Shown here: positions 3,531 to 64,000 of the stretch, one piece after another | How positions within the stretch are numbered: the first letter of the stretch is position 1 | How the letters are laid out: each line of letters begins with the position of its first letter | Source: an uncultured Gammaproteobacteria bacterium | GTDB lineage: Bacteria > Patescibacteriota > Patescibacteriia > Magasanikbacterales > GWA2-37-8 | Length of the DNA stretch: 64,000 nucleotides | Direction: 5' to 3' | NCBI GenBank assembly: GCA_964535515.1 | Contig: CAZHTA010000001.1 | Span: forward strand, 49,707 to 113,706 | Translations under genes and position numbers: made by a program | The notes under the pieces: generated by a model | Databases searched by the model: none | Told to the model about the DNA's origin: nothing | What the model saw: only the letters and a program-made list of their open reading frames with translations

Positions 3531-3535
3531 TTTGA

Positions 3536-16156: not shown

Positions 16157-16170
16157 TTGCTAATTTTTTA

Positions 16171-22183: not shown

Positions 22184-22359
22184 ACCAGAGCACCCAACGT
22201 GCACTACACTCCTCCCGACCTAGGGCATTCCACTATGCCCGAGATCACAGGAACTCCCGTTCCTGCTTCGATCTCAAAAGCAAAAAATATTTTTTTACTT
22301 TTGAGAAAGCAGGAACAAAACAATAGGACAATTCGCATATATGCGAATTGTTTTTTAAT

Positions 22360-35916: not shown

Positions 35917-35969
35917 ATTAAAAACAAAGGAAATAAAAAACCACCATACTTAAAACGGTGGTTTTTTAT
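35917..35969. terminator. bidirectional terminator T3: 21-bp perfect inverted repeat arms
   Basis: caaaggaaataaaaaaccacc-atacttaaaac-ggtggttttttatttcctttg. Sits at the left edge of high-GC island 4. Confidence 0.65.
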
Positions 35970-36059
35970 TTCCTTTGTCGACAAAGTGAAGTGCCGGAGA
36001 GAATGCCGGCTCACTATCACCTCTATTGAATAGCCGAGGGACAGGCCAAGAAAGAACTA

Positions 36060-37373
36060 CTACTCCTTTTCCAAAATTTGAAACCAGGGAAGGATCGAGC
36101 GGTCCGTACGGTGATAAGGACCACGTGCCGGAAGGGTAAAGGAGGGGTTGTTGGCAAGCAACCGATACGTCTCCGGATCAACACGCCGCACTGCCGTGCC
36201 TTCGTCATACTCCTTCTTCACTACCGTACCAGCCGAATACTCATTAAGCAGTATTACTGGCAAAGCAGAAATCGGATGATGCCTGTGCACTTGCGGCATG
36301 ATTTCTTCGAACAGAAGCTGGGAGTGATTAGCCAACAACTCCGACAACACACGCAAGACTTCACGCGTGATGATCGGGCCCATGGCCAAGCAATGCTTCC
36401 CGACGAATTCGGTGACACGCGACTGAAGAACTCCCGAGCTAAACGATCCGATCGCCTTGAGCAAGTTCCAGAGCCAGGCGGTAGTATGGCGATGGCTACC
36501 GTCCGTATTGCACCCATACTCATTCACCACGATAGGAGCAAACCCGTTCTTGTACAAGCTCTGGAGCTCTTGGATAATACGCGCCGGCACCACCAGCTCA
36601 GTTGCCTTGATGGAAGCGAGCCCGACTTCTCCAACCTCAATCCACATGCCGCGATAAACACCCCGACTATGAATATTGAGATTGTAAGAATACTGTCGAT
36701 AACTCGCTGCTGCCTCCAACTCAAAAGCTACGCTCAACCCGCAATTCTCTTTACCAACAACTGACATAGTGTTCTCTGCCCACAAAAGCGTATCGCGATT
36801 GTAGACCATCCTACCGTGTTGGTCCCAAGCCTGACGCACCAACGACAGAACTTTGGCTACGCCATCATCGTGCGCCTGGTGCAGATTGCGCCGCAGCTCT
36901 TCAACATACGCCTGCCAACCAACATCACTCCGCGGCAGCGTTTGAACGACGACGGGACTCAAGACAAAGATGTCCGGCTCTGCCACACCCGACCAATCCC
37001 ACGACGGCAGCTTACGCTCTGCCACGGTCGTTACTGGCTGATGATTCCCAACAACCGGAATCCCCGCGAACTTCGAAAGCTCCTGGAAGCGACTCCATTC
37101 CAAAGCGCCGGCATTAATCTGACAACTACCGCCCGGACCAGGCAAGGTATGCCCGGGAAAGCGCGTCAGACACTGTACCCCCGGCATCACGAGCGCCGTC
37201 CCAACTCGGGAAGAAATGAACTCGCACTCACACCCACTAATCGGATCCGCGAACAGATCATTCTCCTGCTTGATCTGTTTCACGCCCTTCTGCTGTTGAT
37301 ACTGTCCCACGTCTGGCTCCCGAAAGCGACACGACGACTTGAATCCGGGCAAGAGCAACGCACCCTCTCGCAT
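36060..37373 (-). CDS. hypothetical protein (437 aa from the SD-preceded ATG), high-GC island 4
   Basis: GCAGGAGGAGGGAAC then ATG at 37373. About 60% GC. The plus-strand ORFs over it are compositional junk. No family recognised. Confidence 0.6.
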   Translation of the reverse strand: MREGALLLPGFKSSCRFREPDVGQYQQQKGVKQIKQENDLFADPISGCECEFISSRVGTALVMPGVQCLTRFPGHTLPGPGGSCQINAGALEWSRFQELSKFAGIPVVGNHQPVTTVAERKLPSWDWSGVAEPDIFVLSPVVVQTLPRSDVGWQAYVEELRRNLHQAHDDGVAKVLSLVRQAWDQHGRMVYNRDTLLWAENTMSVVGKENCGLSVAFELEAAASYRQYSYNLNIHSRGVYRGMWIEVGEVGLASIKATELVVPARIIQELQSLYKNGFAPIVVNEYGCNTDGSHRHTTAWLWNLLKAIGSFSSGVLQSRVTEFVGKHCLAMGPIITREVLRVLSELLANHSQLLFEEIMPQVHRHHPISALPVILLNEYSAGTVVKKEYDEGTAVRRVDPETYRLLANNPSFTLPARGPYHRTDRSILPWFQILEKE

Positions 37374-37447
37374 GTTCCCTCCTCCTGCTTTTTTAAACAA
37401 AAACACCCGCCAGCCTTGGCGAGTATTTTGTTCAAAAACTAATACCA

Positions 37448-37486
37448 CTACCAAGCAACCGGCCCTGTCCCGGTGGTAGTAGCGGT
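37448..37486. repeat. hairpin element H1 (direct-repeat partner of 38254-38296)
   Basis: ctaccaagcaaccggccctgtcccggtggtagtagcggtag versus ctaccgcctcaaagagagagctgaacggtggtagtagttgtag. Shared CTACC...CGGTGGTAGTAG. Confidence 0.5.
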
Positions 37487-41840: not shown

Positions 41841-42461
41841 TTAATTCCACATACACCACGGCAAAGCTATGCACGGACCTTCAGTCCCCATACTTGCACA
41901 CATACTAGAGAAATTCTCTAGCTGGCCAGTACACTTAAAGGCTGGGGCAACGGCCATCCCGTTCCATTCACATGCCGAACTCAAACATTCTGCCTGAAGC
42001 TTAGGGTTGCAAATAGTACTCACGCTAGTACCTGGTTTTATAGTACAAGTGTTAGCGGTTGGCACACCAGGATTAATACCCGAATTAACCTCTTCCGTCA
42101 CCTTCCCTGCCCCCACCTTCCCTAACACAAAATTCGTAATCGCATAAGCCATAGAAATGACTGCCAAACCGATAATTGCGGCTTCTAGTATGTTTTTGGC
42201 TTTGGTTACGTGTTCTTCATTGCCTTGGGCAGTCATCCAACGAATACCGGCGTATAGAACCAGAATAAAAAAGACAAAATAAACCAAATACAACGCCGTA
42301 TTGATAATTGTGGTTGTTACAGACTCTGGCGTATCATTTTTGCTATAGCTTGTCTTGCTAACAGTCTCATCTAATCCATACTGCGCCTTAACCGGTGTTA
42401 ATCCAAACAAAAAAACCGCTAACAAAAATACGGGCAAAAGTAATAAAAGATATTTATTCAT
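41841..42461 (-). CDS. secreted two-helix VirB2/TrbC-like (T4SS-pilin-like) family protein, paralog 1 (Cys-rich C-terminal domain)
   Basis: Signal peptide MNKYLLLLLPVFLLAVFLFG. Conserved hairpin LYAGIRWMTAQGNEEHVTKAKNILEAAIIGLAVISMAYAITNFV, shared with 8 paralogs at 44036-48910. Confidence 0.55.
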   Translation of the reverse strand: MNKYLLLLLPVFLLAVFLFGLTPVKAQYGLDETVSKTSYSKNDTPESVTTTIINTALYLVYFVFFILVLYAGIRWMTAQGNEEHVTKAKNILEAAIIGLAVISMAYAITNFVLGKVGAGKVTEEVNSGINPGVPTANTCTIKPGTSVSTICNPKLQAECLSSACEWNGMAVAPAFKCTGQLENFSSMCASMGTEGPCIALPWCMWN

Positions 42462-42557
42462 AATTAAATATTTACCCTTAAATAATACCATAACTTGATT
42501 TTTTTTACAAAACATACTATTATATTGACACTTACCCCAAATGGATATTGAATATTT

Positions 42558-42629
42558 GCCCTCATAGTTTAATGGATAAAACACGACCCTTCTAAGGTTG
42601 AGTTGTATGTTCGATTCCTGCTGGGGGCA
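42558..42629 (+). tRNA. tRNA-Arg (anticodon TCT), one T-stem mismatch (coordinates +/-1)
   Basis: gccctca-ta-gttt-aatggata-aaac-a-cgacc-cttctaa-ggttg-agttg-gtatg-ttcgatt-cctgc-tgggggc-a. Acceptor contains a G-U pair. Confidence 0.6.
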
Positions 42630-42690
42630 CGGGTAGTTGAAAAATTATATATATTAAGATATAATCTCAACTAAGATAAAGTCCTGGTAG

Positions 42691-42768
42691 GGGTGTCCTT
42701 GGTATAACGGTTATTACGTCGGTTTGTGGAACCGACAACACGGGTTCGACTCCCGTAGGACACCCCCA
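42691..42768 (+). tRNA. tRNA-His (anticodon GTG) with encoded G-1 and CCA
   Basis: g-ggtgtcc...gtcggt-ttgtgga-accgac...cgggttcgactcccg-ggacacc-c-cca. Confidence 0.85.
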
Positions 42769-42783
42769 CCCGGATTTTTTAAA

Positions 42784-42814
42784 AGACCTCGATTTTATTC
42801 GAGGTCTTTTGTTT
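42784..42814. terminator. terminator hairpin, near-identical copy of the rpoC terminator
   Basis: aaaagacctcgattttattcgaggtctttt versus aaaagaccccgattttttcgaggtctttt at 3497-3527. Overlaps the last codons of the glycosyltransferase gene. Confidence 0.55.
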
Positions 42815-43931
42815 TTAATATTTTCTGTAATATTTCTTCCACACCATTTCCAAATGATAATAGCTTTATTCTTTCTAATATTTTTATATACCCCTCTTCA
42901 TCAGAAAAAAAACTACTTACTGTTTGTGATAACCGCCAAATCCTTGGTTCATACTTGCCATACTTGTTGTCCACCACAAAATCACGATTGCCTTTCTCCT
43001 GTCCCCAGATATAGCTAGTTAAAATTATTGGACGACCAATAATTAAAGATTCAAAAACTACTGCCGGTCCCGCTTTGCCTACCACCAAATCTGCTGCCTC
43101 CATTAATTCTTCCACGTTCTCTGCAAAACCAACAACTGATAATATTTTACTTGGGTAACTGCTTCGTAAACGACTCGCTTGTTCAAAAAATTTCTGCTCT
43201 CGCCCACAAACGACAATTAAACAAAAGTCGTCAGACAAATCTACTAGTGAACGAACAACCTCTCCTCCTTTATACATTCCATCACCACCACCAGCCACTA
43301 AGACTATCTTTTTATCAAGCGGCAAACCTAACTTTCTCCGCATCTCCATCTTGTCCGATACACGCGTCTGCAAAAACTTTTTGTTTATCAACGGTGCTGT
43401 CACGAAAACATTCTTTTCTCCAACACCCTGCTCGAGGGCTATCTTTTTTGCTAATTCGGAAAAAACAAAATATTTAATCTCTTTTTCAAAAAACCAAACT
43501 CGTGGTACAGAAAAAGGATCAGTTACAACCGACCACACTTCTGTCTGTGGACTTACCTTTCTAACAGCCGTTAAAAGTGGCGGGGTAATAAAAAAATACA
43601 ACGAAATTACAATGTCAAATTTGCCCTCTTTTACTAGGCTATCCATGTGCTTTTGATTGCGAAACATGTTCACAAACAAATACATTGCCCAAGAATATTG
43701 CGAGATCCAATAAAACATCCACCACAGTAATATGAAATGATTGCTGTTAATCCACAACGCATACCCCTTGTGTAACAACCATTTAGACAACCTATTACTC
43801 TCAGCTCCAGCATCAACTAAAACAGACTGAGCTAACCCAGAATATTTTTCTTCTATCTCTTTGGCTAACGCTTTAGCAGCACCACTGTGCCCACCACCAG
43901 CATTAACGTAAAATATACCTATCTTTTTCAT
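42795..43931 (-). CDS. GT28-family diacylglycerol glycosyltransferase (MGDG synthase/UgtP-like)
   Basis: N-terminal KKIGIFYVNAGGGHSGAAKAL and C-terminal MurG-like domain. Confidence 0.7.
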   Translation of the reverse strand: MKKIGIFYVNAGGGHSGAAKALAKEIEEKYSGLAQSVLVDAGAESNRLSKWLLHKGYALWINSNHFILLWWMFYWISQYSWAMYLFVNMFRNQKHMDSLVKEGKFDIVISLYFFITPPLLTAVRKVSPQTEVWSVVTDPFSVPRVWFFEKEIKYFVFSELAKKIALEQGVGEKNVFVTAPLINKKFLQTRVSDKMEMRRKLGLPLDKKIVLVAGGGDGMYKGGEVVRSLVDLSDDFCLIVVCGREQKFFEQASRLRSSYPSKILSVVGFAENVEELMEAADLVVGKAGPAVVFESLIIGRPIILTSYIWGQEKGNRDFVVDNKYGKYEPRIWRLSQTVSSFFSDEEGYIKILERIKLLSFGNGVEEILQKILKTKDLE

Positions 43932-44035
43932 AATCGAAACAAACGAAAGAAATGAAAAAAATGATTATTCATTCCCAAACAAGTAAAAACTATATATTTC
44001 AAAACTCTCCTTTTCTAAGGAGAGTCTAACGATGA

Positions 44036-44500
44036 TTAAGGACAAGATAAACCATGACATTCAATCGTGCCACGTTGTTCTATATACTGAATATTTTCAT
44101 AATCAGTCCACCGGCCAAATACGATCTTTGCTACCATTAAAGTAATAGAATAAGCAGAAACAATAATTGCCAGACCAATAGTTGCTTGAAATAACAAAGT
44201 TTTTGATTTAGTTACCTTTTCTTCATTACCACCAGCCGTCATCCACAAAAATCCAGCATACAATGTTAAGACAATAAATATTATACCAATAAACTCTAAC
44301 GCTGTCCGAATAATATTAACAACAGTTACACGTGGATCTTGAGCTTCACCAAACCCTGCCCCTTTTTCTCCAGCAGCTGCCTGCAGCTGCTCAGCAATCT
44401 GAGCTTGAGTACTGCTTGCCGCAGCATTTACCAAAGAAAACGACAAAGCACTTCCCAAAAAGACCAAAGATATAAACAAAAAAACAAAAACCTTTTTCAT
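44036..44500 (-). CDS. VirB2/TrbC-like family paralog 2
   Basis: Signal peptide MKKVFVFLFISLVFLGSALS. Hairpin LYAGFLWMTAGGNEEKVTKSKTLLFQATIGLAIIVSAYSITLMV. Start moved to the internal ATG. Confidence 0.55.
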   Translation of the reverse strand: MKKVFVFLFISLVFLGSALSFSLVNAAASSTQAQIAEQLQAAAGEKGAGFGEAQDPRVTVVNIIRTALEFIGIIFIVLTLYAGFLWMTAGGNEEKVTKSKTLLFQATIGLAIIVSAYSITLMVAKIVFGRWTDYENIQYIEQRGTIECHGLSCP

Positions 44501-44507
44501 AAAACAA

Positions 44508-45008
44508 TTACTTAAAACCATTTTTAAACTCCTGCCAGCCACTACTCCAACCCCGACCAAAACCATCCCAAAAGCCTGTATCACTAGAAGGTGTAGCAGC
44601 ACCAACTGCTGAGCCGCTACCCTGAGCTCCACCAACCGTATACACCACCACAAAAGCCGTAATACCATAAGCTGCTACGACTATTATCAAACCGATAACT
44701 GCCATCTTTAAAATATTTGTTGCCTTAGTAACTTGTTCTTCGTTACCACTAGCAGTCATCCACAAAAACCCAGCATAAACTGTTAGAGCTAAAAAAAGTG
44801 TACCAACCAGCGTCATCGCTATCTTGATAATTCCGCCAACTTTTTCTGACAAAGCAGTCCCGCTCTCGTCGCTCTTATCATACCCAGCCTGTGCCGCAAC
44901 CTTGCCGGTCAACTCATTAATATTTGGTGCTGCTAAAACTGGTACAGCTATCAAAAAAACAAAAAGCGAGAGAAGGGCAGAGGTGATAATTTTACTTTTT
45001 AATTTCAT
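44508..45008 (-). CDS. VirB2/TrbC-like family paralog 3 (Gly/Trp-rich tail)
   Basis: MKLKSKIITSALLSLFVFLIAVPVLA...VYAGFLWMTASGNEEQVTKATNILKMAVIGLIIVVAAYGITAFV. Confidence 0.55.
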   Translation of the reverse strand: MKLKSKIITSALLSLFVFLIAVPVLAAPNINELTGKVAAQAGYDKSDESGTALSEKVGGIIKIAMTLVGTLFLALTVYAGFLWMTASGNEEQVTKATNILKMAVIGLIIVVAAYGITAFVVVYTVGGAQGSGSAVGAATPSSDTGFWDGFGRGWSSGWQEFKNGFK

Positions 45009-45024
45009 AAATTTATTTACTAAC

Positions 45025-45459
45025 CTACAAACACTGCTTAATTGTTGTACTACAAGTTTGACCACCCGAACAATCTGATGTGGTCGCACATGTTGTTGGT
45101 CCTGTCCCACCACCTGCCAACCTACCTGTAACAAAACTAGTGATTGCATAAGCGGCCATGGTAATAACCAAACCAATAATTGCAGCAATAATAATATTCT
45201 TTGATTTGGTAACTTTTTCTTCATTGCCCTGAGCAGTCATCCAAAGAATACCAGCGTAGACAGTTAAAATTAAAAATATTGTACCAACTAAAGCCAATGC
45301 ACCAGAAATAATAGTACCAACCGAAGTCTCTAAACTAGCTTCTAAGCCGGTTTGTTTGCCAACTTCCCCTAATTTTGTTGCCGCACTGTTCCATTGTGCT
45401 GAAGCAGAAAAAGGTAATAGCAACAGACAAACCGAAAGGAGTAAAAATATTTTTTTCAT
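45025..45459 (-). CDS. VirB2/TrbC-like family paralog 4 (Cys-rich tail)
   Basis: MKKIFLLLSVCLLLLPFSASA...VYAGILWMTAQGNEEKVTKSKNIIIAAIIGLVITMAAYAITSFV...CATTSDCSGGQTCS. Confidence 0.6.
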   Translation of the reverse strand: MKKIFLLLSVCLLLLPFSASAQWNSAATKLGEVGKQTGLEASLETSVGTIISGALALVGTIFLILTVYAGILWMTAQGNEEKVTKSKNIIIAAIIGLVITMAAYAITSFVTGRLAGGGTGPTTCATTSDCSGGQTCSTTIKQCL

Positions 45460-45472
45460 AATTTATAAAATG

Positions 45473-46060
45473 TTATTTACAACAAACATTTAAATCACCG
45501 CCTGTACAAAGACTTAAAGCACATTTATCTGAATTATTAGAGCATGCAGTACGTTTAGTTGATGTCGTGGCATCAGCAGCAAATGGCGGCAAACCACAAC
45601 TACCAATATCTTTACAAGTAAAACCAGGTTTTGTTTTCGCACATGTCTCTGCCGTCACCTCTCCAGCCGGTGTACTGCTAGTTTTCGTTCCCAAACTAGT
45701 GAAAACAAAATTCGCAATCGCGTAAGCACCGCCCACCAAAACTAGACCAATAATTGCTCCTTCAATAATATTTTTTGCTTTAGTGACTTGTTCGGTATTG
45801 CCCATTGCTGTCATCCAAGTAAAACCAGCATATAAGATTAAAACAAAAAAGATAATACCGATAAAAGACAAGGCAATATTAATCACTACACCAATAACAG
45901 CCGCCGGTGTTCCCATTTTAGCAATTTTTGTATCTTTTAATCCCGCCTTATCCGCTGCTACTCCAGCACCATAAGTAGGATCTGCTGCTGCCAAAACAAA
46001 AATTGGAGACAACAAAATTAAGGCGAGAACAAACGCAATCAATATTTTTTTAATATACAT
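45473..46060 (-). CDS. VirB2/TrbC-like family paralog 5 (Cys-rich tail)
   Basis: MYIKKILIAFVLALILLSPIFVLAAA...LYAGFTWMTAMGNTEQVTKAKNIIEGAIIGLVLVGGAYAIANFV...8 Cys in the tail. Confidence 0.55.
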   Translation of the reverse strand: MYIKKILIAFVLALILLSPIFVLAAADPTYGAGVAADKAGLKDTKIAKMGTPAAVIGVVINIALSFIGIIFFVLILYAGFTWMTAMGNTEQVTKAKNIIEGAIIGLVLVGGAYAIANFVFTSLGTKTSSTPAGEVTAETCAKTKPGFTCKDIGSCGLPPFAADATTSTKRTACSNNSDKCALSLCTGGDLNVCCK

Positions 46061-46171
46061 ATTTATCTTATATATTGGACACTGGAAAAAATACCTTCTT
46101 TCCACTAGCCAATAAAACTTCTTCCAACAGGGGGTTGCGCGCGCGAACCCCCTGTAGAAAGATAAAAACTA

Positions 46172-46645
46172 TTATGGGTTAAGGGTAGCTGTAACCAACT
46201 GGGTAATAACAAAGCTAGCTAAAGCGTAAGCGGACAAGATAATAGCTAAACCGATAATACCAGAAAAAATCCATTTCTTTGCCTCTCCTACTTTTTCTTC
46301 GTTACCACCAGCGGTCATCCAAGTGAAACCACCAATCAAGATGATAACAACTGCTACGATACCAAGTAAGCTCATGGCTGTACGAATAATACTAGCGATA
46401 GTAGTACGCACATCCTTAGAACCTAAACCGGTGTCAGCACCATAGTAAAGACCTAAAGAAGTAGCACTAATATCATTATTAGTACTAGCGGCAGCGGTAC
46501 ATGCTACTGGAGGTGTGCCTTGCATTGTCCCAACGGCTGCACCGCCAGTACAAACCGCAGCGCTCACCATTGATGGACTCATAACAATACCTAAACCTGC
46601 CACCAACATTACACTCAAAACGATAGTCGATAAAATTTTCTGCAT
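46172..46645 (-). CDS. VirB2/TrbC-like family paralog 6 (variable domain N-terminal)
   Basis: AAGGGGG SD before ATG at 46645. IGGFTWMTAGGNEEKVGEAKKWIFSGIIGLAIILSAYALASFV. Confidence 0.55.
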   Translation of the reverse strand: MQKILSTIVLSVMLVAGLGIVMSPSMVSAAVCTGGAAVGTMQGTPPVACTAAASTNNDISATSLGLYYGADTGLGSKDVRTTIASIIRTAMSLLGIVAVVIILIGGFTWMTAGGNEEKVGEAKKWIFSGIIGLAIILSAYALASFVITQLVTATLNP

Positions 46646-46706
46646 ATATTCACCCCCTTTCTTTGTATCAAAATTTATACAATAATTATAACACACCGAT
46701 TATTTT

Positions 46707-47261
46707 TTATCCAGACAATCCTTTCAACACTGCTGTCAAAAGCAGATAACTAGACAACACCACTACTGCACCTAAAATTGCCCAAATAATCATGTTTGAA
46801 CCAGACTTAATTTTTTCCGGACTACCAGCAGCTGTCAACCAAGTAATTCCACCATAAACAATCATCAAAAGAACAAGAGCACCCATTATACCAGTGGCAG
46901 TTTTAATAGCATTGCCAATAATAGCATTCACATCTGTTACATTTCCCTCCAAAGGATTACTTAATTTTACTACATTGCCAGAATCAGTTGGGGCGCTGAC
47001 AGTAGAACTAGGAGCGACTCCTGGCACCTCTTCATTGCACGACTCCGGCAAAGCTTCCACTGGCCCACCACTAGTACAACCTTCTGGACAAACCGCTTCC
47101 ACTTCTGCTGCCGCACCAAAAGAAGCACATTTTTGACCATTAACTCGTTCAACTTCAGACAAAGAACTACCAGAACAATCACAAAAATAAATTGCAGCAA
47201 AAGTAGTCGCCGGAAAAAATACACACCCAACAATTAATAAATATAAAAATAATTTTTTCAT
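46707..47261 (-). CDS. VirB2/TrbC-like family paralog 7 (Cys-rich N-terminal domain)
   Basis: MKKLFLYLLIVGCVFFPATTFA...VYGGITWLTAAGSPEKIKSGSNMIIWAILGAVVVLSSYLLLTAV. Confidence 0.5.
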   Translation of the reverse strand: MKKLFLYLLIVGCVFFPATTFAAIYFCDCSGSSLSEVERVNGQKCASFGAAAEVEAVCPEGCTSGGPVEALPESCNEEVPGVAPSSTVSAPTDSGNVVKLSNPLEGNVTDVNAIIGNAIKTATGIMGALVLLMIVYGGITWLTAAGSPEKIKSGSNMIIWAILGAVVVLSSYLLLTAVLKGLSG

Positions 47262-47264
47262 ATA

Positions 47265-48236
47265 TTACCCAGCAAATTTAAAAAGAATAGTAACGATCGC
47301 ATAACTTGCCAAAACCACTATCACCCCAAGCGTGCTCCAGATAGCAATTTGCTTTGCCTTACCAACTCTTTCACTACTACCCGCCGAAGTCATCCAAAGC
47401 ACGCCGGCATAGACATAGAAAAGCAACAACAAAGACCCCATGGTAAACGTCATAGCGGCAATCATTCTGCCAATAAAATCGTTAACTCCCGCTGCGCCTG
47501 TTTTAAATTTCATTGGATTAAGTGTGCTAGCAGCTTCGGCCTTAAGTATTTTAGCAGTGTCAATAACTGGAGCGGTAGGTTTTTCTATTATCGACTCAGC
47601 ACTACTACAAGGCTTTATCCCGTTAGAAAAAAGATCAGCACAATTCCCAGCAAACTCTTTCCAACCACCCCACGAAGCGCTGACTGTTGAATTTGGATCG
47701 TCGCAAGTTAAAAAATCACCAAGATTGCTCCCGGCAGGAATTATCCCTGACTCAATCTGACCGAGAACTTCTGGACGAATAAAAGGAACATGTGGCGGGG
47801 CATCCTTACATGAGGCATCTGAGTTGTAACAACACGCATTTTTTTGCACAGCTTCTATTTGTTTTTTAACACCATTCGCACTCGCCTTACTAAGTTTAAC
47901 CAAAAAACCAGTACTATTATTTAATTGGTCTGCTTTAGCACAGTTTTCATCGTCGTTACCAACTGCCGCAGCATAAAATCCAGGTACATCAATACATTCT
48001 CCAGATTCTGAAGAATAGCCTCCTTTTAAATTATCCGAATAGATACCTGACTCTAAAGAACAATCCGCCGGTTGATTAGTTGTAATATTTAGACAGATTT
48101 CGCTTGGCTCATCACCTTCATAGTAAACACAACAAGCGCCAGCGGCGGCGGCATAATCATAATGAGAAACAAACAAATACCCAGATAAAAAAATTACAAA
48201 GAAAGACAAAAACTTAAAAGAAAAAAACTCACGCAT
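47265..48236 (-). CDS. VirB2/TrbC-like family paralog 8 (large Cys-rich N-terminal domain, 323 aa)
   Basis: About 16 Cys in the ectodomain, then VYAGVLWMTSAGSSERVGKAKQIAIWSTLGVIVVLASYAIVTILF. Confidence 0.5.
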   Translation of the reverse strand: MREFFSFKFLSFFVIFLSGYLFVSHYDYAAAAGACCVYYEGDEPSEICLNITTNQPADCSLESGIYSDNLKGGYSSESGECIDVPGFYAAAVGNDDENCAKADQLNNSTGFLVKLSKASANGVKKQIEAVQKNACCYNSDASCKDAPPHVPFIRPEVLGQIESGIIPAGSNLGDFLTCDDPNSTVSASWGGWKEFAGNCADLFSNGIKPCSSAESIIEKPTAPVIDTAKILKAEAASTLNPMKFKTGAAGVNDFIGRMIAAMTFTMGSLLLLFYVYAGVLWMTSAGSSERVGKAKQIAIWSTLGVIVVLASYAIVTILFKFAG

Positions 48237-48241
48237 ATATT

Positions 48242-48910
48242 TTAACTAGTCAATTGAAACTCTGGCTTTATATTAACCGCCTCACCCAAGAAACTTACTA
48301 ACATATAAGCACCAAACATGATAACCAAACCAATTACTGCTGCCACCAAAATATCTGTACCTTTCTTTACTTTCTCCGAACTGCCTTGAGACAAGATCAA
48401 TGTAAACCCACCATAAACAAACATTACCAAAGCCAAAGCACCAATTACACCAAACAAATACCGTGACAGCTGAATAAGAAAAAATACAAAAATAGAAACA
48501 TCCATACAAGGATCATCTGCCACTTTCGAGAACGATCGCGCCAAGAGACATTCTGGAATTAATTGGCTAGCCACTCCTCTGAAACCACTTTTAGTAGCAG
48601 CCGTTCCTTCTAAATCTCGAGAGGCTTCCCATTTATTTTTTTCGTCTTTACATAACTGTTCACCCGTTGCTCCAGCAAAAAACTTACAACTTCTTTTTAA
48701 TCCTTCACCCTGCTTTGCTAAACAAGTAGCTTCATCTGCTGCTGTTTCACAACTACTACTAAACAAAGAATTGTCTTTAATATTCTCTGGCGTTGCTTTG
48801 CTTAAATCACTCCCACAAAAACAATAATCAGCCGCCGAAACTAATGTGGGGGTTAAGAAAAACATCAACCCAATTAAACCTCCTACTAACCAACTGGTTT
48901 TTTTAATCAT
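48242..48910 (-). CDS. VirB2/TrbC-like family paralog 9 (Cys-rich N-terminal domain)
   Basis: MIKKTSWLVGGLIGLMFFLTPTLVSA...VYGGFTLILSQGSSEKVKKGTDILVAAVIGLVIMFGAYMLVSFL. Confidence 0.5.
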   Translation of the reverse strand: MIKKTSWLVGGLIGLMFFLTPTLVSAADYCFCGSDLSKATPENIKDNSLFSSSCETAADEATCLAKQGEGLKRSCKFFAGATGEQLCKDEKNKWEASRDLEGTAATKSGFRGVASQLIPECLLARSFSKVADDPCMDVSIFVFFLIQLSRYLFGVIGALALVMFVYGGFTLILSQGSSEKVKKGTDILVAAVIGLVIMFGAYMLVSFLGEAVNIKPEFQLTS

Positions 48911-57577: not shown

Positions 57578-59848
57578 ATGCGACGACGAATGTACCATTG
57601 TCAGCGCCGCCAAACTAGGGCGCCGCTTAATCTTAATCCGCAGATCAGCCACGGACTGTTGGCAATTTTTTTGTTTATCGTTGCTGGTTTAGCAACTCTA
57701 AGCTTTTTCTCCTTAGCTGGTGTTGCCGGTCAGTTTATCGATTCCCTACTTGCCCTACTTTTCGGACAGGTTCGATATTTCTTCCCAATTGTTTTAATAA
57801 CCTCAGCTGTTCTCTTAATTAAAGACATCGAATACAACTATCGCCACACCCATTCTTTGGGGGCAGTGCTTTTTTTCTTAAGTTTTAACGGTCTTGTTCA
57901 TTTAGGTAAACCTGTTGGTGAAATGGTAGATATTGCTTTGCAAGGATATGGTGGTGGTTTGATTGGTTTGGTTCTTGGTTGGCCACTAGGGAAATATGTT
58001 GGCTATTGGGGCGGACTCATGATTTTAATTGGCCTACTTCTTGTTGCTATCATCTTCCTTTTTAACACCTCACTCACCCGCTTAGTTGAACTACACAAAA
58101 AAGCCTTCCTCGCTTTAGGTTGGGCAGGCAAACAGTTAGTTGGGCTATTCGCCGGATTCAAAAAAACCGAAGATGTAAAGTTTAGCATCAAGGGTGATTA
58201 TCAAGCTGCTGTTGAGGAAGAAGAAGCTGAAGAGGAAGAAGAAAGATCGTTTAAACAAAAATCAATTGGTAAAGAAGCAGAGGAAGAGTCTGAAGATGAA
58301 GAGGAGGAAACCGAAGAAGAGGAAGAAGCGCCTACCTTAGGAGTACCTCGACCAGTGATAAAAGACTTACCAGACTTAGATATTCTTTACACTTCCAAAA
58401 GCAAGCCGTCAGCTGGTGATATTAAAGGCAACGCTGAAGTAATCAAAAGTACCCTAAGCAACTTTGGTATTGAAGTCGATATGGGCGAAGTGCGAGTTGG
58501 CCCAAGTGTTGCTCAGTATTCTTTTAAACCGGCTGCTGGTGTAAAGCTTACACGCATCACTACTCTCTCAAACGACTTGGCCTTGGCCTTGGCCGCTCAC
58601 CCCATTCGTATTGAAGCACCAATCCCAGGCAAATCACTCGTCGGTGTTGAAGTGCCAAACCAAAAAGTAGCCATGGTAACTTTGCGTGAATTACTAGAAG
58701 CACCTGAATTCCAAAATCGTCCACACAACATGATGATTGCATTAGGTAAAGACGTGGCGGGCAAAGTCTGGTTTGCCGATTTACCACGCATGCCCCACCT
58801 CTTGGTTGCTGGCGCAACTGGCTCTGGTAAAACTGTTTGTATTAACTCCATCATCTTAAGTTTGATTTATCAAAATACCGCTGAAACTCTACGTTTCATC
58901 ATGGTTGACCCAAAACGCGTAGAGCTAACTTTGTATAACGGCATCCCCCATCTTTTAACACCGGTCATTACTGACTCGCACAAAACTGTTAATGCCTTAC
59001 GTTGGACAATTAGTGAAATGGAGCGCCGCTTTGATGTGCTAGCCAAAGCAGGTAAACGTGACATTGGTACATACAACCTTAGCGCTGCTGAACCTCTACC
59101 ACACATTGTGTTTGTAATCGACGAACTCGCTGATTTAATGGCCACAGCTGCCTCCGAAGTCGAAGCCGGAATTATCCGTATTGCTCAGATGGCCCGTGCA
59201 GTTGGTATCCATCTAGTGGTTGCTACCCAACGCCCAAGTGTTGAGGTTATTACCGGTTTAATGAAAGCAAACATTCCTGGCCGCATCGCCTTCTCAGTCG
59301 CTTCCATTATCGACTCTCGCACTATCCTTGATTGCCCAGGAGCAGACAAACTACTCGGTCGCGGTGATATGCTTTTGTTAACCGCTGATATGTCAAAGCC
59401 AAAACGTATCCAGGGCGCCTATGTTTCCGAAGAAGAAATTGACCGCGTCGTTGAATATTTAAAAGGTGACGAACCGCCAACATATGATGAAACTGTAGTT
59501 GCTAAAGGTGGTAGTAGTAGTGGTACTGCCAGCATGTTTGGTGGACCAAGTGATGAACAAGACTCTTTATTTGATGATGCTAAAAAAACTGTAATCGAAT
59601 CAGGCAAAGCCTCTGCTTCGCTATTACAACGTCGCTTACGAGTCGGTTATGCCCGTGCCGCACGTCTCTTGGACGAATTGGAAGAAGCTGGTATAGTAGG
59701 ACCAGCGGAAGGCGCCAAACCCCGCGAGGTCTTTGTAGAACACCTACGCCAAGAAGAAGAGATTCCCGAAGAAGAACAGACAATGGATGCTGGCGGAACT
59801 GTCTTTGATGCTCCAGAAAAAAAGACCGACGAAGAAGAGAACATCTAA
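57578..59848 (+). CDS. ftsK: DNA translocase FtsK/SpoIIIE
   Basis: 4 TM N-domain, E-rich linker, motor domain with Walker A AGATGSGKT, C-terminal gamma winged helix. Start moved downstream of the extended -10 promoter TGaTATAAT at 57553-57561. The ORF-track start lies inside a terminator hairpin. Confidence 0.9.
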   Translation: MRRRMYHCQRRQTRAPLNLNPQISHGLLAIFLFIVAGLATLSFFSLAGVAGQFIDSLLALLFGQVRYFFPIVLITSAVLLIKDIEYNYRHTHSLGAVLFFLSFNGLVHLGKPVGEMVDIALQGYGGGLIGLVLGWPLGKYVGYWGGLMILIGLLLVAIIFLFNTSLTRLVELHKKAFLALGWAGKQLVGLFAGFKKTEDVKFSIKGDYQAAVEEEEAEEEEERSFKQKSIGKEAEEESEDEEEETEEEEEAPTLGVPRPVIKDLPDLDILYTSKSKPSAGDIKGNAEVIKSTLSNFGIEVDMGEVRVGPSVAQYSFKPAAGVKLTRITTLSNDLALALAAHPIRIEAPIPGKSLVGVEVPNQKVAMVTLRELLEAPEFQNRPHNMMIALGKDVAGKVWFADLPRMPHLLVAGATGSGKTVCINSIILSLIYQNTAETLRFIMVDPKRVELTLYNGIPHLLTPVITDSHKTVNALRWTISEMERRFDVLAKAGKRDIGTYNLSAAEPLPHIVFVIDELADLMATAASEVEAGIIRIAQMARAVGIHLVVATQRPSVEVITGLMKANIPGRIAFSVASIIDSRTILDCPGADKLLGRGDMLLLTADMSKPKRIQGAYVSEEEIDRVVEYLKGDEPPTYDETVVAKGGSSSGTASMFGGPSDEQDSLFDDAKKTVIESGKASASLLQRRLRVGYARAARLLDELEEAGIVGPAEGAKPREVFVEHLRQEEEIPEEEQTMDAGGTVFDAPEKKTDEEENI

Positions 59849-60510
59849 TGTCAATCTTTTGCATTAAAAAAATCACTCCTCCTGTCCATCTCGGACAGCT
59901 CTTAAAAGAAGCCCGCCTTAAAGCTGGCCTTACTTTGTTTTCCTTAGAACAAAAAACCAGAATCGCAGAAAAATATTTGCAGGCGATCGAAGAAAACAAC
60001 TACTCTATCCTACCACCTGCCCGTGCCTATCGCTTAGCTTACATTCGCGAGTTTGCTAATACTGTTAATTACAACTCTGAAAAAGCAATCTATCAATTTA
60101 TCAAAGAAAATGGATTGGGTGATATCAAAACAATCCACCCTCAAAGTGGAATTAAAAAAATGCAACTCTACTTTACCTCGTGGTTAGTCCGTAGTATTTT
60201 AATTATCGGCATCATCGTACTTTTTGTTGGCTACCTTGGCTGGCAAGTAAAAGGAATTTTAACTCCACCTGATCTCCAAGTATATTCACCAATCGAAGGT
60301 GCAATTATTAATCAAACCGAAATCGTTATCGAAGGTGTAACTGCAAAAGAAACGCACCTAACTATCAACGGACAAGAGGTACGGGTAAATGAACAGGGTA
60401 AATTTAGCACCACCTTAAATCTTTCTGTCGGGGTAAACACTCTAACCATTACCGCTACCAAAAAACACGGCAAAACCATCTCCATCGTACGTCACGTGGT
60501 GGTGAAATAA
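59848..60510 (+). CDS. RodZ-like HTH membrane protein
   Basis: N-terminal XRE HTH LGQLLKEARLKAGLTLFSLEQKTRIAEKYLQAIE, single TM, C-terminal beta domain. Start overlaps the ftsK stop. Confidence 0.6.
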   Translation: MSIFCIKKITPPVHLGQLLKEARLKAGLTLFSLEQKTRIAEKYLQAIEENNYSILPPARAYRLAYIREFANTVNYNSEKAIYQFIKENGLGDIKTIHPQSGIKKMQLYFTSWLVRSILIIGIIVLFVGYLGWQVKGILTPPDLQVYSPIEGAIINQTEIVIEGVTAKETHLTINGQEVRVNEQGKFSTTLNLSVGVNTLTITATKKHGKTISIVRHVVVK

Positions 60511-60590
60511 TCCACAATTTTACCCCCTTGCTCTTCAAACCATTACCCGATATAATACGGGTACTTTAATTTAAATTTTAAATTTACACT

Positions 60591-61652
60591 ATGCCTAAAG
60601 TTAGTGAGGAGGTAAAGAACAAGCTAAAAGCCGCTGAAACTGCTATTGAGCAAATCAAAGCTAAATTCGGTGAAGGCGCAATCATGACCTTTGGGGAGGG
60701 GCAAACTACGCACGTCGAATCAGTTACTACCGGTTGTCTTTCATTAGACGTTGCCTTGGGTGTAAGAGGCGTACCACGTGGCCGTATTATCGAAATCTAT
60801 GGCCCAGAATCTTCTGGTAAAACCACCCTGTCTCAACATATTATCGCTGAGGTACAAAAAACTGGTGGTATTGCCGCCTTTGTGGATGCAGAACATGCTT
60901 TTGATCCAGACTATGCTAGAAAAATTGGTATTAAGATTGAAGAGCTTCTAATCTCTCAACCTGACACCGGCGAACAGGCTTTAGATATCGTAGAAACATT
61001 AGTACGATCTAATGCCGTCGATATTATCGTCGTCGACTCAGTTGCGGCACTTGTACCAAGAGCAGAAATCGAAGGTGACATGGGAGATTCACACATGGGT
61101 TTACAAGCTCGTCTCATGAGCCAGGCACTACGTAAACTTACTGGTATTATCAGCAAGTCAAAAACCATCCTTGTTTTCATCAATCAGACTCGTATGAAGA
61201 TCGGCGTGGTCTATGGTAACCCAGAAACTACTACCGGTGGTACTGCTTTAAAATTTTACTCTTCTATCCGTATTGAAATTCGTCGCGCCGCCCAGATTAA
61301 ACAAGGCGACAAAGTGATTGGTAACCGAGTGAAGATAAAAGTAGTAAAAAACAAAGTAGCCGCACCGTTCCGCACCACTGAATTTGATATCATGTATAAT
61401 GAAGGAATTTCACTAAGTGGCGACACTCTTGATACTGGTGTGTTATTTAAAGTGATTGATAAAAAAGGTAATAGCTACAGCTTTGGTGAAGAAAAACTTG
61501 GTGTCGGACGCGAAGCTGCCAAAAGATATTTGAAAGAACACCCAGAATTAATGAAAAGAGCCTATGCCGCTGTCTTTGAAGCAGTACAAAGTGGTGAAGC
61601 ACCAGAAGAGGAAGAGGCTGAAGACGACGCACCATTGCCAACGGAAGAATAG
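60591..61652 (+). CDS. recA: recombinase RecA
   Basis: [10 protein letters not shown] Walker A, L1/L2 loops, acidic C-tail. Confidence 0.97.
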
Positions 61653-61666
61653 ACTAAATCTAAAAA

Positions 61667-61700
61667 CAAAAACACTTCCCGATTTGGGGAGTGTTTTTTT
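61667..61700 (+). terminator. recA terminator (direct-repeat copy A)
   Basis: caaaaacacttcccgatttggggagtgttttttt. Confidence 0.7.
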
Positions 61701-61743
61701 GTTTCTTTGCCTAGCGAAACTGATTGTATTTATTGGGTAAAGC

Positions 61744-61771
61744 ACACACATCATTGACAAAACCGCTATTT
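61744..61771 (+). promoter_or_regulatory. sigma70-like promoter TTGACA-16-TATTAT, upstream of the island 5 gene
   Basis: Read directly. Followed by an about 140-nt AT-rich leader containing the palindrome tcgccagtggcga (61873-61885). Confidence 0.5.
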
Positions 61772-61915
61772 TATGCTATTATATCCTGTTCTTTAAAAAC
61801 TATATCCCTTTTGGCAAAAGACGTAAATTATAAAATATTTACTTTTTCTACCAGAAGGGACAACGTACCAATCGCCAGTGGCGAGTATGGCGTGCCCCTT
61901 GAATTGAGGACTAAA

Positions 61916-62293
61916 ATGAGGAAAATCGCATTGGTTCTGGTTGCGGCCCTGTTCGTTCTGTCGACCGGTATCGGCATCTGGGACTGCTGGAGCAACACCA
62001 ACGGCGACGGATGGAACCCGTCGACCCCGGTCATCTCATTCGTGCTCGGCTACAGCCGGGTCGAACCCTGCACCTATTTGGGGCAGGAGGACGGGTGGGA
62101 CTGCACGACCTTTGACGGGGCCATCAACCCTCTCCCCTGGGCGTGGGTGGATGAGCCAAAAAAAGACGACATCCTGCACACGATCATCGTGATGACCCCC
62201 AAGTGGCTCGAATGGCTGGGGCTCCTGTTCGCGACGATCGCCCTGGCTGCTCCGCCGCCGCGCACAACCACGCTCAATCGTGGCAACATCTGA
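61916..62293 (+). CDS. small secreted/membrane-anchored Cys/Trp-rich protein (125 aa), high-GC island 5
   Basis: GAGGA then ATG. MRKIALVLVAALFVLSTGIG signal/anchor. CWSNTNGDGWNP...C...C...WAWVDEP. About 62% GC. Confidence 0.55.
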   Translation: MRKIALVLVAALFVLSTGIGIWDCWSNTNGDGWNPSTPVISFVLGYSRVEPCTYLGQEDGWDCTTFDGAINPLPWAWVDEPKKDDILHTIIVMTPKWLEWLGLLFATIALAAPPPRTTTLNRGNI

Positions 62294-62363
62294 GACCTCA
62301 CGGGTTCGGTAGCGCAATTCTTGCGCAAACACGAACCTGTGAATTCACACAGTTCTTAACACC

Positions 62364-62448
62364 GACCCTCCATAGCAGAAAAAAATTTTCTTCTGTGGAG
62401 GTGTTAGGAATATTACTTAAAAAGAAACGCATTTTGCGTTTCTTTTTG
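62364..62448 (+). terminator. two terminator hairpins after the island 5 gene
   Basis: cctccatagcagaa...ttctgtggagg and agaaacgcattttgcgtttct+TTTTT. Confidence 0.55.
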
Positions 62449-62478
62449 TGTTCATTTAAATAGTAAACCTAACCTAGA

Positions 62479-62510
62479 CAAAAACACTTCTAAATTTGGG
62501 GAGTATTTTT
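62479..62510. repeat. degenerate direct-repeat copy B of the recA terminator
   Basis: caaaaacacttctaaatttggggagtattttt versus copy A caaaaacacttcccgatttggggagtgttttt, about 28/32 identical. Confidence 0.75.
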
Positions 62511-62679
62511 CTAATTTTACAATCGATAAACAATCACAGGACTTACAATGCTCTTATGAACCGACCAGTCTGACCAACCCAAGATTAGCATCTACAAAAA
62601 CTACATCTCCAATCTTTAAAATCCTCGTGACATTTTGTCCTAATCACACAAGGTTTAGAATGTTTTTCATATTTAATTA

Positions 62680-63993
62680 TTATTTTTTAGCTTTCTGAAT
62701 AATCTTTACAATTCCAACGCTAGCATCAACTTCAATCAAATCCCCGTCTCCTATTATTTGTGTAGCATTTTTTGTGCCAATTACACACGGAACACCAAGT
62801 TCTCGTGACACAACAGCGGCATGACATGAGAGGCCGCCCTCATCGGTAACAATCGCACCAGCCCTTTTCATCCCCACAATAAAATCCGGCGTTGTCATGC
62901 TTGTAATCAATATTTCTCCATGTTTCAATTTTGTAATTTCCGATATTTTATTAATAACCCGGGCTTTACCAACAACATAACCGAGTGAAGCAGGGAAACC
63001 ATTAATTTGCCTAGTGTTAGTGTTCGCTTTATTAAAAGAATTCTCTATCTCACATACCAACTTTTTGGCAAACACCCCTGTTAACATCAAAATTTTTCCA
63101 TTTAACACCCCAATTATAAAACCTCTCTTTCTATCTTCTATCTCTTTCTTAGAAATATCTAATTTGCCATTTTTTAATGATTCAACAATTTCTTCATGGG
63201 TAAGACGCAAAAAATTATCACGACTTACTCCAAATTGTTTTGCCAAAAAAGGAAGAAACTTTTCATATGATTGCCACAACTGTTGCATCGACTCTTTGGT
63301 GTGATTTCTTAAATATATCCCTACTTGTAAAGCAACCACGATATGCTTAAGTGGGTGTTTAACAATTTTTGTTCTTACATTTACTGGTTGTTTTAACGTC
63401 AGCTCTTGTTTTAGTTCTTCTTTAGTATATGGTTCTGTTATATTATAACAATTTTTAATCCAAACAAATTTTATTAAATGTTCCTCCTCTAAATTTTTTA
63501 TTTTATTTTTTGTTTGTGCTTTTTTTATTTCAACCAAGGATTGAGTTACGAGATCTAAATCAAGCGCTCTATAAGGTACAGCATATTTTAACAAGGTCTT
63601 ATCTTTATTTTCGATAACTTTTTCACAATAATTAGTGAGCGGGACAGCAATAGCATAATATCTTGAATATTTTTTTTGAAGTTGAAAATATTTACTTATA
63701 CAGGCAATGCGTTCTTCGTTTGTTAAATTAGTCCATTTTTGTTGATTAACAATCTTAATAAATTTATTTTTTTGCTTGGACAAAGAATTAATTTCCGACA
63801 TTTTTTTTAACACCCAATTTTTTTCTTCAGCAAAAGCTGCGGGAATAATTTTATTCATTACTTTTTCTGTAGTTTTTGAATCAAACAAATTCAAATCATT
63901 TGCCCAGACAATATTTTTGTATGACACGCTTTGATTTTTAGTTAAAATAAATTTTTGGCAAACACCATCGGCAACCATCTGTTTAGACTGCAA
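62680..63993 (-). CDS. PEP-utilizing enzyme mobile-domain protein (PEP synthase/rifampicin-phosphotransferase-like); may extend beyond the window
   Basis: C-terminal GEILITSMTTPDFIVGMKRAGAIVTDEGGLSCHAAVVSRELGVPCVIGT, the phosphohistidine swivel domain. Confidence 0.65.
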   Translation of the reverse strand: MQSKQMVADGVCQKFILTKNQSVSYKNIVWANDLNLFDSKTTEKVMNKIIPAAFAEEKNWVLKKMSEINSLSKQKNKFIKIVNQQKWTNLTNEERIACISKYFQLQKKYSRYYAIAVPLTNYCEKVIENKDKTLLKYAVPYRALDLDLVTQSLVEIKKAQTKNKIKNLEEEHLIKFVWIKNCYNITEPYTKEELKQELTLKQPVNVRTKIVKHPLKHIVVALQVGIYLRNHTKESMQQLWQSYEKFLPFLAKQFGVSRDNFLRLTHEEIVESLKNGKLDISKKEIEDRKRGFIIGVLNGKILMLTGVFAKKLVCEIENSFNKANTNTRQINGFPASLGYVVGKARVINKISEITKLKHGEILITSMTTPDFIVGMKRAGAIVTDEGGLSCHAAVVSRELGVPCVIGTKNATQIIGDGDLIEVDASVGIVKIIQKAKK

Positions 63994-64000
63994 AAAACCA

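Follow-up and report, generated by a model that had tools for sequence, protein, structure and literature searches.

A High-GC Promoter–Gene–Terminator Cassette Bracketed by Terminator Repeats Behind recA in a Patescibacteria Genome

Introduction

Little is understood about how Patescibacteria, with their tiny genomes, gain new genes. According to one recent survey, horizontal transfer accounts for up to 13% of genome length, with no mechanism given at this scale (PMC12455944). A small locus that bears on this question lies in a 64 kb window of a Patescibacteria contig (the window is the whole stretch of DNA analysed, and negative results on mobility machinery and on repeats refer to it). Directly behind recA, a cassette consisting of a promoter, one open reading frame (ORF) of 125 amino acids (aa) and a set of hairpins stands between two similar copies of the recA terminator. 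The initial annotation of the locus took these copies for the classic footprint of site-specific integration and the cassette for the cleanest mobile candidate in the window. Was the cassette gained at this site, and, if so, by what means?

The analysis partly supports that interpretation. The cassette is best described as a horizontally acquired single-gene islet, added directly behind recA after the split from the closest sampled sister, with the terminator duplicated by host recombination or repair; we give this account about an even chance. A site-specific mobile element is not established for the islet, and the mechanism discussed below is a proposal. The genome of the window is low in GC (about 39%), and its closest named RecA relatives are Candidatus Magasanikbacteria.

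Results

The recA Terminator Repeat

The direct repeat of the recA terminator noticed in the initial annotation is real. Its core of 33 nucleotides (nt), at 61666–61698 and 62478–62510, is identical in 29 of 33 positions, and gapped local alignment stretches it to 61648–61698 and 62459–62510, from the recA stop (AATAG) onward. The extended alignment scores 52, while shuffled sequences give 18.8 ± 2.3 with a maximum of 28 (n = 300). The two copies, hereafter Y1 (next to recA) and Y2 (distal), are terminators of 31–33 nt with an A-tract, a stem and a T-tract, and are located at the exact borders of the cassette in direct orientation. Y1 folds into a strong hairpin (−19 kcal/mol, z = −4.6), whereas the fold of Y2 (−7.1 kcal/mol, z = −1.6) is no better than that of shuffled sequences on either strand. 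By the usual features of Rho-independent terminators, a stable GC-containing hairpin followed by a T run, Y1 and the cassette's own terminator (Xc) qualify and Y2 does not.

The Y motif was found at just two sites of the window, Y1 and Y2, and was absent from 103 related loci and from IMG/VR. As a score background, and solely for that purpose, 17 bona fide window terminators were collected under a strict definition that misses imperfect hairpins. Their 136 pairwise scores did not exceed 25, compared with 46 for the hairpin portion of Y1 and Y2. The similarity of the two copies is far greater than that among ordinary terminators; some hairpins at unlinked loci of the window, however, match one another with scores of 41–53.

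Empty and Occupied recA Flanks in Related Genomes

Useful relatives were obtained via exact-protein look-ups of RecA homologues. A RecA scan of GTDB representatives found no genome of the same species (best match 77–79%), and a metagenome scan with the RodZ-like neighbour of recA returned distant relatives only, at most 51%. The gene order FtsK, RodZ-like gene, recA is common to all relatives.

Relatives with an uninterrupted recA flank, which the initial annotation had proposed to look for, do exist. The closest one, L102, has a RecA identical to that of the window (100% aa), with 92.5% nt identity over window positions 59709–61659 and an identity of 0.81 at third codon positions of recA. This identity holds evenly as far as the recA stop, and 7 nt further on it is gone: L102 has a different hairpin here, followed by the csoR promoter/operator and the csoR gene, so that the site is empty. 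In L100 and L101 (RecA 90%), recA is followed by a terminator and the csoR-cop operon, and in L099 (RecA 93%) by SOD, in both cases with no cassette.

A homologous cassette is present between recA and csoR in L093, L096 and L098, which represent one lineage recovered in three samples (RecA 93% aa and 81% nt, recA third-codon identity 0.556). It comprises a TTGACA-17-TATGAT promoter, a leader, a 137-aa homologue, the same two hairpins in the 3′ untranslated region (UTR) and a terminator. The homologue (L093, 3658–4071) is 46% identical in aa sequence to the window ORF, and its GC-content at third codon positions (GC3) is 0.83, compared with 0.34 in recA of the same lineage. The nucleotide identity between the two cassettes is 55% for the ORF, 60% for the leader and 78.5% for the 3′ UTR (62294–62415) with its hairpins, which is the level of the recA 3′ coding end and well above that of the ORF. 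The cassette of this lineage is bracketed by another type of hairpin (pair score 29, background maximum 25), the recA terminator of the lineage being marginally similar to the terminator that belongs to the cassette. In the window spacer behind Y1, GTTTCTTTG aligns with the right arm of that recA terminator; the resemblance is weak. The sequence distal to the L093 cassette was considered as a remnant of the Y type and rejected, being the csoR promoter, and a 147-aa minus-strand "gene" called in L096 and L098 is a shadow ORF of the high-GC homologue.

Thus, the cassette is found in two of the five lineages and is absent from the closest one. This is a presence/absence polymorphism at a variable recA-flank site. 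Since the recA-csoR backbone is found in L102, L100/L101 and, with the cassette in between, L096, this backbone is taken to be ancestral for the genus and the window arrangement to be the derived one, and the direction of change would be a gene gain in the window lineage.

Further features were noted in the relatives. In L001 (RecA 77%), a different 213-aa ORF (1314–1955, 60–65% GC) lies on the opposite strand directly behind the recA terminator, with no Pfam match and no flanking repeat. L096 carries tandem units of small ORFs (2743–3779, 52–138 aa, no Pfam match), with repeats of 52 nt (90%) and 81 nt (89%) that are about 490–530 nt apart and include a hairpin. In L088 (RecA 83%, 11977–17475), the recA terminator CAAAAAACCGTCACAATCGTGGCGGTTTTT occurs four times in direct orientation, the copies being 88–100% identical and separating a Fic-domain gene, a four-gene module that includes an AbiEii toxin, and a further module to which SHOCT and DsrE-like genes belong. 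The same region has a repeat of 78 nt (14157 and 16227) with 97% identity.

The Cassette Gene and Its Product

The high-GC gene of 125 codons between the two copies was correctly identified at the outset: it begins at the ATG at 61916 and has a GC-content of 61% (GC1/2/3 of 0.52/0.49/0.82). GC3 of host genes (recA, rpoB, rpoC, FtsK and the RodZ-like gene) is 0.31–0.38, and the rise of GC from about 0.37 to about 0.61 coincides exactly with the ORF. In the public annotation (P0001, 160 aa, window 61811–62293), a TTG within the leader serves as the start codon; the ATG is supported by the alignment of the family, by the Shine-Dalgarno sequence and by the orthologue in L093.

A word-indexed search of 5.8 billion clusters matched only the gene itself. 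An exhaustive HMMER search of 1.84 billion representatives recovered six genuine relatives of 102–137 aa, and a profile search of the 5.8 billion clusters added one more (P0010), which gives seven besides the window protein. These homologues (P0002, P0004–P0006 and P0008–P0010) share the invariant residues N27, D31, G32, P35, G45, R48, C52, W61 and C63. Pfam and PHROGs contained no match for the ORF. Homologues with conserved residues and a strong three-base periodicity show the ORF to be a genuine gene, of a tiny family with about eight members and a narrow, patchy distribution. The periodicity and the protein homologues also exclude a diversity-generating retroelement target or a structured non-coding RNA as the cause of the GC island.

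The product contains three Cys and eight Trp residues. An AlphaFold2 model (predicted local distance difference test score, pLDDT, 71) shows helices at residues 2–26 and 96–111 around a small beta/loop domain. Hydropathy is consistent with these helices, and the second hydrophobic one (~96–111) is conserved in the family, whose members share an N-terminal hydrophobic helix, a loop with the invariant residues and a C-terminal hydrophobic helix. The initial annotation had assigned a signal/anchor and a secreted Cys/Trp-rich domain to the protein. The Cys/Trp loop is upheld; secretion is not, because of the second, C-terminal helix. The prediction is instead a membrane protein with an anchor at either end, between which a Cys/Trp loop of ~70 aa, bearing a conserved Cys pair, faces outward.

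Anatomy of the Transcription Unit

The cassette is a discrete promoter–gene–terminator unit of foreign composition, its transcription being predicted from the signals collected in Table 1. The promoter hexamers had been read correctly, with the spacer counted as 16 nt instead of 17, and both the position and the hexamers are kept in L093. The leader is AT-rich and has a palindrome, as noted initially, with a length of 133 nt when counted between the −10 hexamer and the ATG, or about 127 nt from the likely start site, rather than 140 nt. Its fold has an energy of −37.8 kcal/mol (z = −4.1 versus shuffles). The palindrome, TCGCCAGTGGCGA, is not conserved in L093.

Table 1. Features of the recA flank and the cassette (window coordinates).
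Feature	Position	Strand	Description
recA	60591–61652	+	Pfam RecA, 1.9e-134; conserved gene, its 3′ flank being the insertion site
Repeat copy 1 (Y1)	61648–61698	+	recA stop codon, spacer, strong terminator hairpin; core 61666–61698
Spacer between Y1 and promoter	61699–61753	+	Holds GTTTCTTTG
Putative promoter, near-consensus sigma-70 type	61754–61782	+	TTGACA, 17-nt spacer, TATTAT, TG extension; 11/12 matches
AT-rich 5′ leader	61783–61915	+	Long hairpin at ~61805–61860; palindrome 61872–61884; Shine-Dalgarno GAGGA 61906–61910
125-aa ORF	61916–62293	+	ATG at 61916, stop ends at 62293; foreign codon usage
3′-UTR hairpin 1	62298–62342	+	GGGTTCGG...CGAACC, inner stem GCGCAA/TTGCGC
3′-UTR hairpin 2	62352–62410	+	Long stem TTCTTAACACC...GGTGTTAGGAA
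Cassette's own intrinsic terminator (Xc)	62418–62448	+	AAAAAGAAACGC-ATTT-TGCGTTTCTTTTT; −16.2 kcal/mol
Repeat copy 2 (Y2)	62459–62510	+	Decayed copy of the recA stop/terminator segment; core 62478–62510
Downstream neighbour, PEP-utilising mobile domain gene	62680–63993	-	GC 0.32, unusually low

Three hairpins, and not two terminators as first described, follow the ORF, and only the last one (62418–62448) is a canonical terminator; it is orthologous to the terminator of the L093 cassette. The entire 3′ UTR folds with −71.9 kcal/mol (z = −11). Relative to L093, hairpin 1 contains a compensatory change from A-U to U-A and hairpin 2 contains three compensatory pairs. Overall, pairing in the leader hairpin and in the UTR hairpins is kept by compensatory changes (4 and 5 pairs in a comparison of only two sequences). 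The 3′ UTR could be an mRNA-stabilising element or give rise to a 3′-UTR-derived small RNA. Rfam searches of the leader and 3′ UTR (gathering threshold and E ≤ 1) gave sub-threshold noise only, and a search of IMG/VR with the UTR motif returned nothing. A LexA/SOS operator in the 3′ UTR (CTGTG-N6-CACAG, 62337–62352) was considered and ruled out, as it is not conserved in L093.

Mobility Machinery

The absence of a recombinase from the cassette, stated initially, was confirmed: the single ORF of 125 aa leaves no room for an integrase. Pfam scans of plausible ORFs across the 64 kb, part of a 148-kb contig, identified RecA and RuvB and no integrase, transposase, reverse transcriptase or Cas1. An inverted-repeat scan of 61400–62800 found no terminal inverted repeats, only hairpins and cross-matches of the palindromic copies. 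A second copy of the ORF, of the UTR motifs or of the Y hairpin was found neither in the window nor in the 103 related loci or IMG/VR. As for similar cassettes elsewhere, which the initial annotation had proposed to search for, similarly built units do occur in the window (see below). The length of the bracketing repeat is not fixed across cassettes, being 33–51 nt here and 161 nt in island 1, described below. With no recombinase or second copy found, no terminal inverted repeats and a break of homology upstream of the first repeat copy, a classic footprint of site-specific integration is not established.

Age and Composition

Y1 and Y2 differ by 12% over 33 nt, and third-codon divergence of the window lineage is 19% from L102, which is of a similar order, and 44% from L096, which is far larger. 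An event close to the separation from L102, or later than it, would agree with this age of the repeat. As the copies are 12% divergent, Y2 is decaying and GC3 is unameliorated, the event would be a comparatively young one in the window lineage. The cassette family itself is old: the two ORFs are only 46% identical, and at conserved residues codon sharing is barely higher than expected at saturation, the excess being the same as for recA. Hence, the family is old, and the window copy, or at least its repeat, arrived relatively recently. A homologous cassette being present in a lineage whose recA is 19% diverged in nt sequence, the family is an old one, and the window copy is not evidently an active mobile element.

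At near-saturated synonymous divergence, a neutral foreign gene would have drifted far nearer to the host GC3 of 0.34. A GC3 of ~0.82 in both lineages needs selection or a biased process acting on the gene, or continued movement; neutral amelioration does not explain it.

The Downstream Neighbour

Where relatives carry a csoR-copZ/DsbD-copA operon, the window has the PEP-utilising mobile domain gene, and the GC-content across 63000–64000 is 0.26–0.30. The csoR gene is absent from the whole 64 kb window. The acquired or rearranged region may, therefore, reach past the cassette to this gene and beyond the window.

Other Islands in the Window

Five high-GC islands with no assigned function were noted in the 64 kb, at least four of them being ready-to-express units with their own promoter. 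All five adjoin intrinsic terminators, three are located just behind core genes (rpoC, guaB and recA) and several are bracketed by duplicated terminators. The recA islet is island 5. The ORFs of the other islands had no match in Pfam or PHROGs.

Among the duplicative insertions of the window, the clearest is island 1 (780–3520), located downstream of the rpoC terminator. It features a 161-nt direct repeat, 99% identical (1187–1347 and 2672–2832), consisting of the last 107 nt of a 230-aa membrane-protein gene (2726–3418, minus strand) and its terminator. The cassette has a perfect TTGACA-17-TATAAT promoter (minus strand, ~2660–2625) and a 184-aa ORF (1884–2438, GC3 0.85) with no Pfam match. 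An internal 128-nt duplication is 87% identical (1404–1531 and 1894–2021), and an extra promoter with a small Cys-rich ORF is located on the minus strand at ~940–1146.

Island 2 (13140–16160) contains an 834-aa ORF (13368–15872, minus strand, 60% GC) of no known family with a TTGACT...TAGAAT promoter and an internal 87-nt repeat (14047 and 14548, 85% identical). It is bracketed by bidirectional hairpins (13157–13196 and 16125–16158, score 43) with compensatory stem differences, the second being the guaB terminator. Island 3 (21880–22355), just upstream of ruvB, has a TTGACA...TAGATAAT promoter, a 77-aa high-GC ORF (21951–22184, no Pfam match) and hairpin terminators at 22259–22316 and 22328–22351, and its architecture is that of island 5. 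Island 4 (36060–37454) holds a 464-aa ORF (54% GC, GC3 0.60) with no Pfam or PHROGs match, which overlaps the end of a HAD-hydrolase gene; the island is bounded by a hairpin at 35924–35978.

Two further features were recorded. At 12925–13060, in a GC-rich patch just before the hairpin at 13157, there is an ORF of 21 codons, MRHVLMSVKKRGMKFGRRRVF, with a TTGACA-17-TAATTT promoter and a strong Shine-Dalgarno sequence in front of it. At 41844–48910, there are seven paralogous PF18895 T4SS-pilin-like genes, which are the source of the 70–76% identical repeats in the self-comparison of the window.

Discussion

Origin of the Islet

According to the account that we prefer, the islet would be an autonomous unit with a structured leader transcribed from a strong promoter of the housekeeping type. 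The ORF product would expose its fast-evolving Cys/Trp loop of ~70 aa on the cell surface; the mRNA is probably stabilised by the pair of conserved hairpins at its 3′ end, and the terminator would insulate the neighbours. The doubling of the terminator most likely arose as a side effect of integration, with host recombination or repair making a second copy of the recA stop/terminator segment. Candidate routes are short-homology Campbell-type integration of a circular fragment and template switching at the hairpin. No cassette-encoded enzyme would be involved, and the distal copy would now be decaying.

This account is supported by the empty site in L102, where homology is lost after the recA stop, by the sharp GC3 switch at the ORF and by a repeat that is both significant and unique. 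None of the scanned ORFs of the 64 kb encodes a recognised recombinase or transposase. In addition, a 161-nt duplication with 99% identity brackets another cassette with a promoter and a high-GC ORF, island 1, and because of that duplication it can be stated that duplicative insertion at terminators does occur in the window genome.

Several observations weigh against the proposed history. Homology to L102 ends at 61659/61660, upstream of the core Y1 repeat, and the recA hairpin of L102 is different; therefore, Y1 is not demonstrably a pre-existing target and may have come with the insert. Judged as an attL/attR-type pair, the repeat begins at the recA stop, yet homology to the nearest empty site ends before copy 1, with a different hairpin. 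Similarly matched hairpin pairs are found at unlinked loci, with scores of 41–53 (13157 vs. 35924, 53; 3487 vs. 42781, 48; 16125 vs. 35924, 41), two of the pairs being 22–39 kb apart. Because such equally similar pairs exist, a pair of similar terminators alone is no proof of target duplication. The downstream gene is atypical too (GC 0.32) and csoR is missing from the window, and the acquired or rearranged region may extend past the cassette on the right. Finally, because the distant L096 lineage has a homologous cassette at this very site, either a second insertion there or an ancient presence followed by several losses is required; the distribution calls for two gains at one site, or for one gain and at least 2–3 losses.

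One alternative is a cassette mobilised in trans and targeted to hairpins: a recombinase encoded elsewhere would insert promoter–ORF–hairpin units beside terminators, and the hairpin would be duplicated or recombined in the process, in an integron-like or CRISPR-repeat-like manner. We see some chance of this, a low one. The homologous cassettes are located at exactly the same recA-flank spot in lineages whose recA genes are 19% apart in nt sequence, with the close sister empty, and a GC3 of 0.82–0.83 in both lineages despite near-saturated synonymous divergence fits ongoing movement. In L088, four recA terminator copies separate Fic, AbiE-type and other accessory modules. The high-similarity hairpins (3487–3515, 13157–13196, 16125–16158, 35924–35978, 42781–42810, Y1 and Y2) are nearly confined to the edges of the five high-GC islands: six of the seven are at island borders, the exception being 42781, which adjoins tRNA-His. 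Their placement is compatible with either cassette-borne hairpins or insertion-linked duplication. However, neither the scanned window ORFs nor the immediate surroundings of the L088 array include an integrase, transposase or Cas1-like gene, and no second copy of the cassette or its UTR motifs turned up in the window, the 103 loci or IMG/VR. The repeat lengths are inconsistent (33–51 nt here, 161 nt in island 1 and about 30 nt in L088), the hairpins are ordinary terminators of ~30 nt with neither the length nor the boxes of attC sites, and the two hairpins on either side of the L096 cassette reach a score of only 29, where the background goes up to 25.

A second alternative, that of an ancestral cassette inherited vertically and deleted in L102, L099 and L100 by recombination between the repeats, which gene conversion would have kept alike, we likewise think improbable. 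It accounts for the same position and architecture in the window and L093/L096, where the promoter, leader hairpin, 3′-UTR hairpins and terminator align, and direct repeats ease precise deletion. The fraction of identical codons at conserved residues is also higher than expected at saturation to the same extent for the ORF (0.59 vs. 0.50) and recA (0.555 vs. 0.445). However, at least 2–3 independent losses would be needed, one of them in the close sister, and no hairpin of an empty site is Y-like or scarred, L102 being different from 7 nt past the recA stop. Neutral amelioration should have brought GC3 to at most about 0.6 by a rough two-state estimate, and not 0.82. The Y1/Y2 duplication is much more recent than the separation of the window and L096 lineages, and copy 2 is decaying rather than maintained.

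A third alternative separates the repeat from the insertion: the cassette would have arrived through homologous exchange of the flanks or illegitimate recombination, the similar hairpins being due to local copying or conversion or belonging to a dispersed family. The equally similar hairpin pairs 22–39 kb apart (13157/35924 and 3487/42781) agree with this, as does the different hairpin type that brackets the same cassette in L096, and beyond the palindrome the repeat comprises just a short, A-rich stretch that aligns with gaps. Nevertheless, the Y type is found nowhere else, its copies are exactly at the cassette borders in direct orientation, and the island 1 case (161 nt, 99%, 107 nt of it coding) cannot be convergence, which makes this alternative a poor candidate. 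An assembly chimera or a spurious ORF, that is, a foreign high-GC fragment stitched into a low-GC contig of a metagenomic genome, would explain the abrupt GC switch and is very improbable, given an orthologous cassette with the same GC jump behind recA in the independent contigs L093, L096 and L098, repeat copies too imperfect for a k-mer join, AT-rich UTRs conserved together with the ORF and a protein family with conserved residues.

Comparison with Known Systems

Genomic islets, or minimal mobile elements, exchanged between conserved flanking genes have been described for Neisseria, and the Patescibacteria lineage is thought to take up DNA. The recA islet resembles these elements as a one-gene unit between core genes that is patchy among relatives, variable in contents and devoid of mobility genes. 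It differs from them in being bracketed by a terminator duplication and in having its own strong promoter, structured UTRs and a strongly foreign composition; moreover, exchange via flanking homology is not seen, recA being free of mosaicism up to the stop codon.

Integron cassettes and clusters of attC sites lacking integrons (CALIN) also consist of small, mostly single-ORF units of unknown function split by hairpin repeats, a likeness that extends to the four-hairpin array of L088. The attC sites are imperfect inverted repeats of ~55–141 nt with R″/L″/L′/R′ boxes, and the cassette ORFs of integrons lack promoters, being expressed from Pc in an array beside intI/attI. Unlike these, the hairpins here are terminators of ~30 nt, the cassette has its own promoter with 11/12 consensus matches, no IntI, attI or Pc was found, and the cassettes are scattered behind rpoC, guaB and recA instead of forming one array.

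As in integrase islands that target the 3′ ends of genes (tRNA, tmRNA or protein genes) and regenerate them, the direct repeats would correspond to the 3′ end of the target gene, and the islet abuts a highly conserved gene; the island 1 repeat, which includes 107 nt of coding sequence, is reminiscent of an attL/attR pair. In contrast to such islands, there is no integrase in or near the islet, its size is 0.8 kb and the repeat length is variable. Group IIC introns and some insertion sequence (IS) families, such as IS200/IS605, home to terminator hairpins, and the insertion point directly 3′ of an intrinsic terminator hairpin is shared with them. Unlike those elements, the islet has no intron RNA structure (no Rfam match), no reverse transcriptase or TnpA and no element ends. 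Hairpin-homing elements of these kinds are not known to duplicate the hairpin.

Significance

It is conceivable, though unlikely in our estimate, that this clade of Patescibacteria captures promoter–ORF–hairpin cassettes beside the terminators of core genes (recA, rpoC and guaB), with the hairpin acting as an attachment site duplicated each time. If this were true, arrays such as the four-hairpin array of L088 would be built in this way, an integron-like function would exist without attC or a recognisable integrase, and cassettes would keep their high-GC3 coding style across hosts.

The cargo found at the recA flank varies from one relative to another. Should the duplication of the terminator prove to be part of the mechanism, it would provide a simple route for adding insulated, self-expressing genes, with no disturbance of their neighbours, by means of only host functions or a trans factor. 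The cargo of the window islet, predicted to be a fast-evolving protein with a surface-exposed loop, is a plausible player in the cell-to-cell contact of an episymbiont, and the persistent high GC3 in two lineages is a compositional puzzle in itself. The locus can be filed as a small horizontally acquired islet, with a non-negligible chance that it represents a new cassette-capture mechanism of Patescibacteria.

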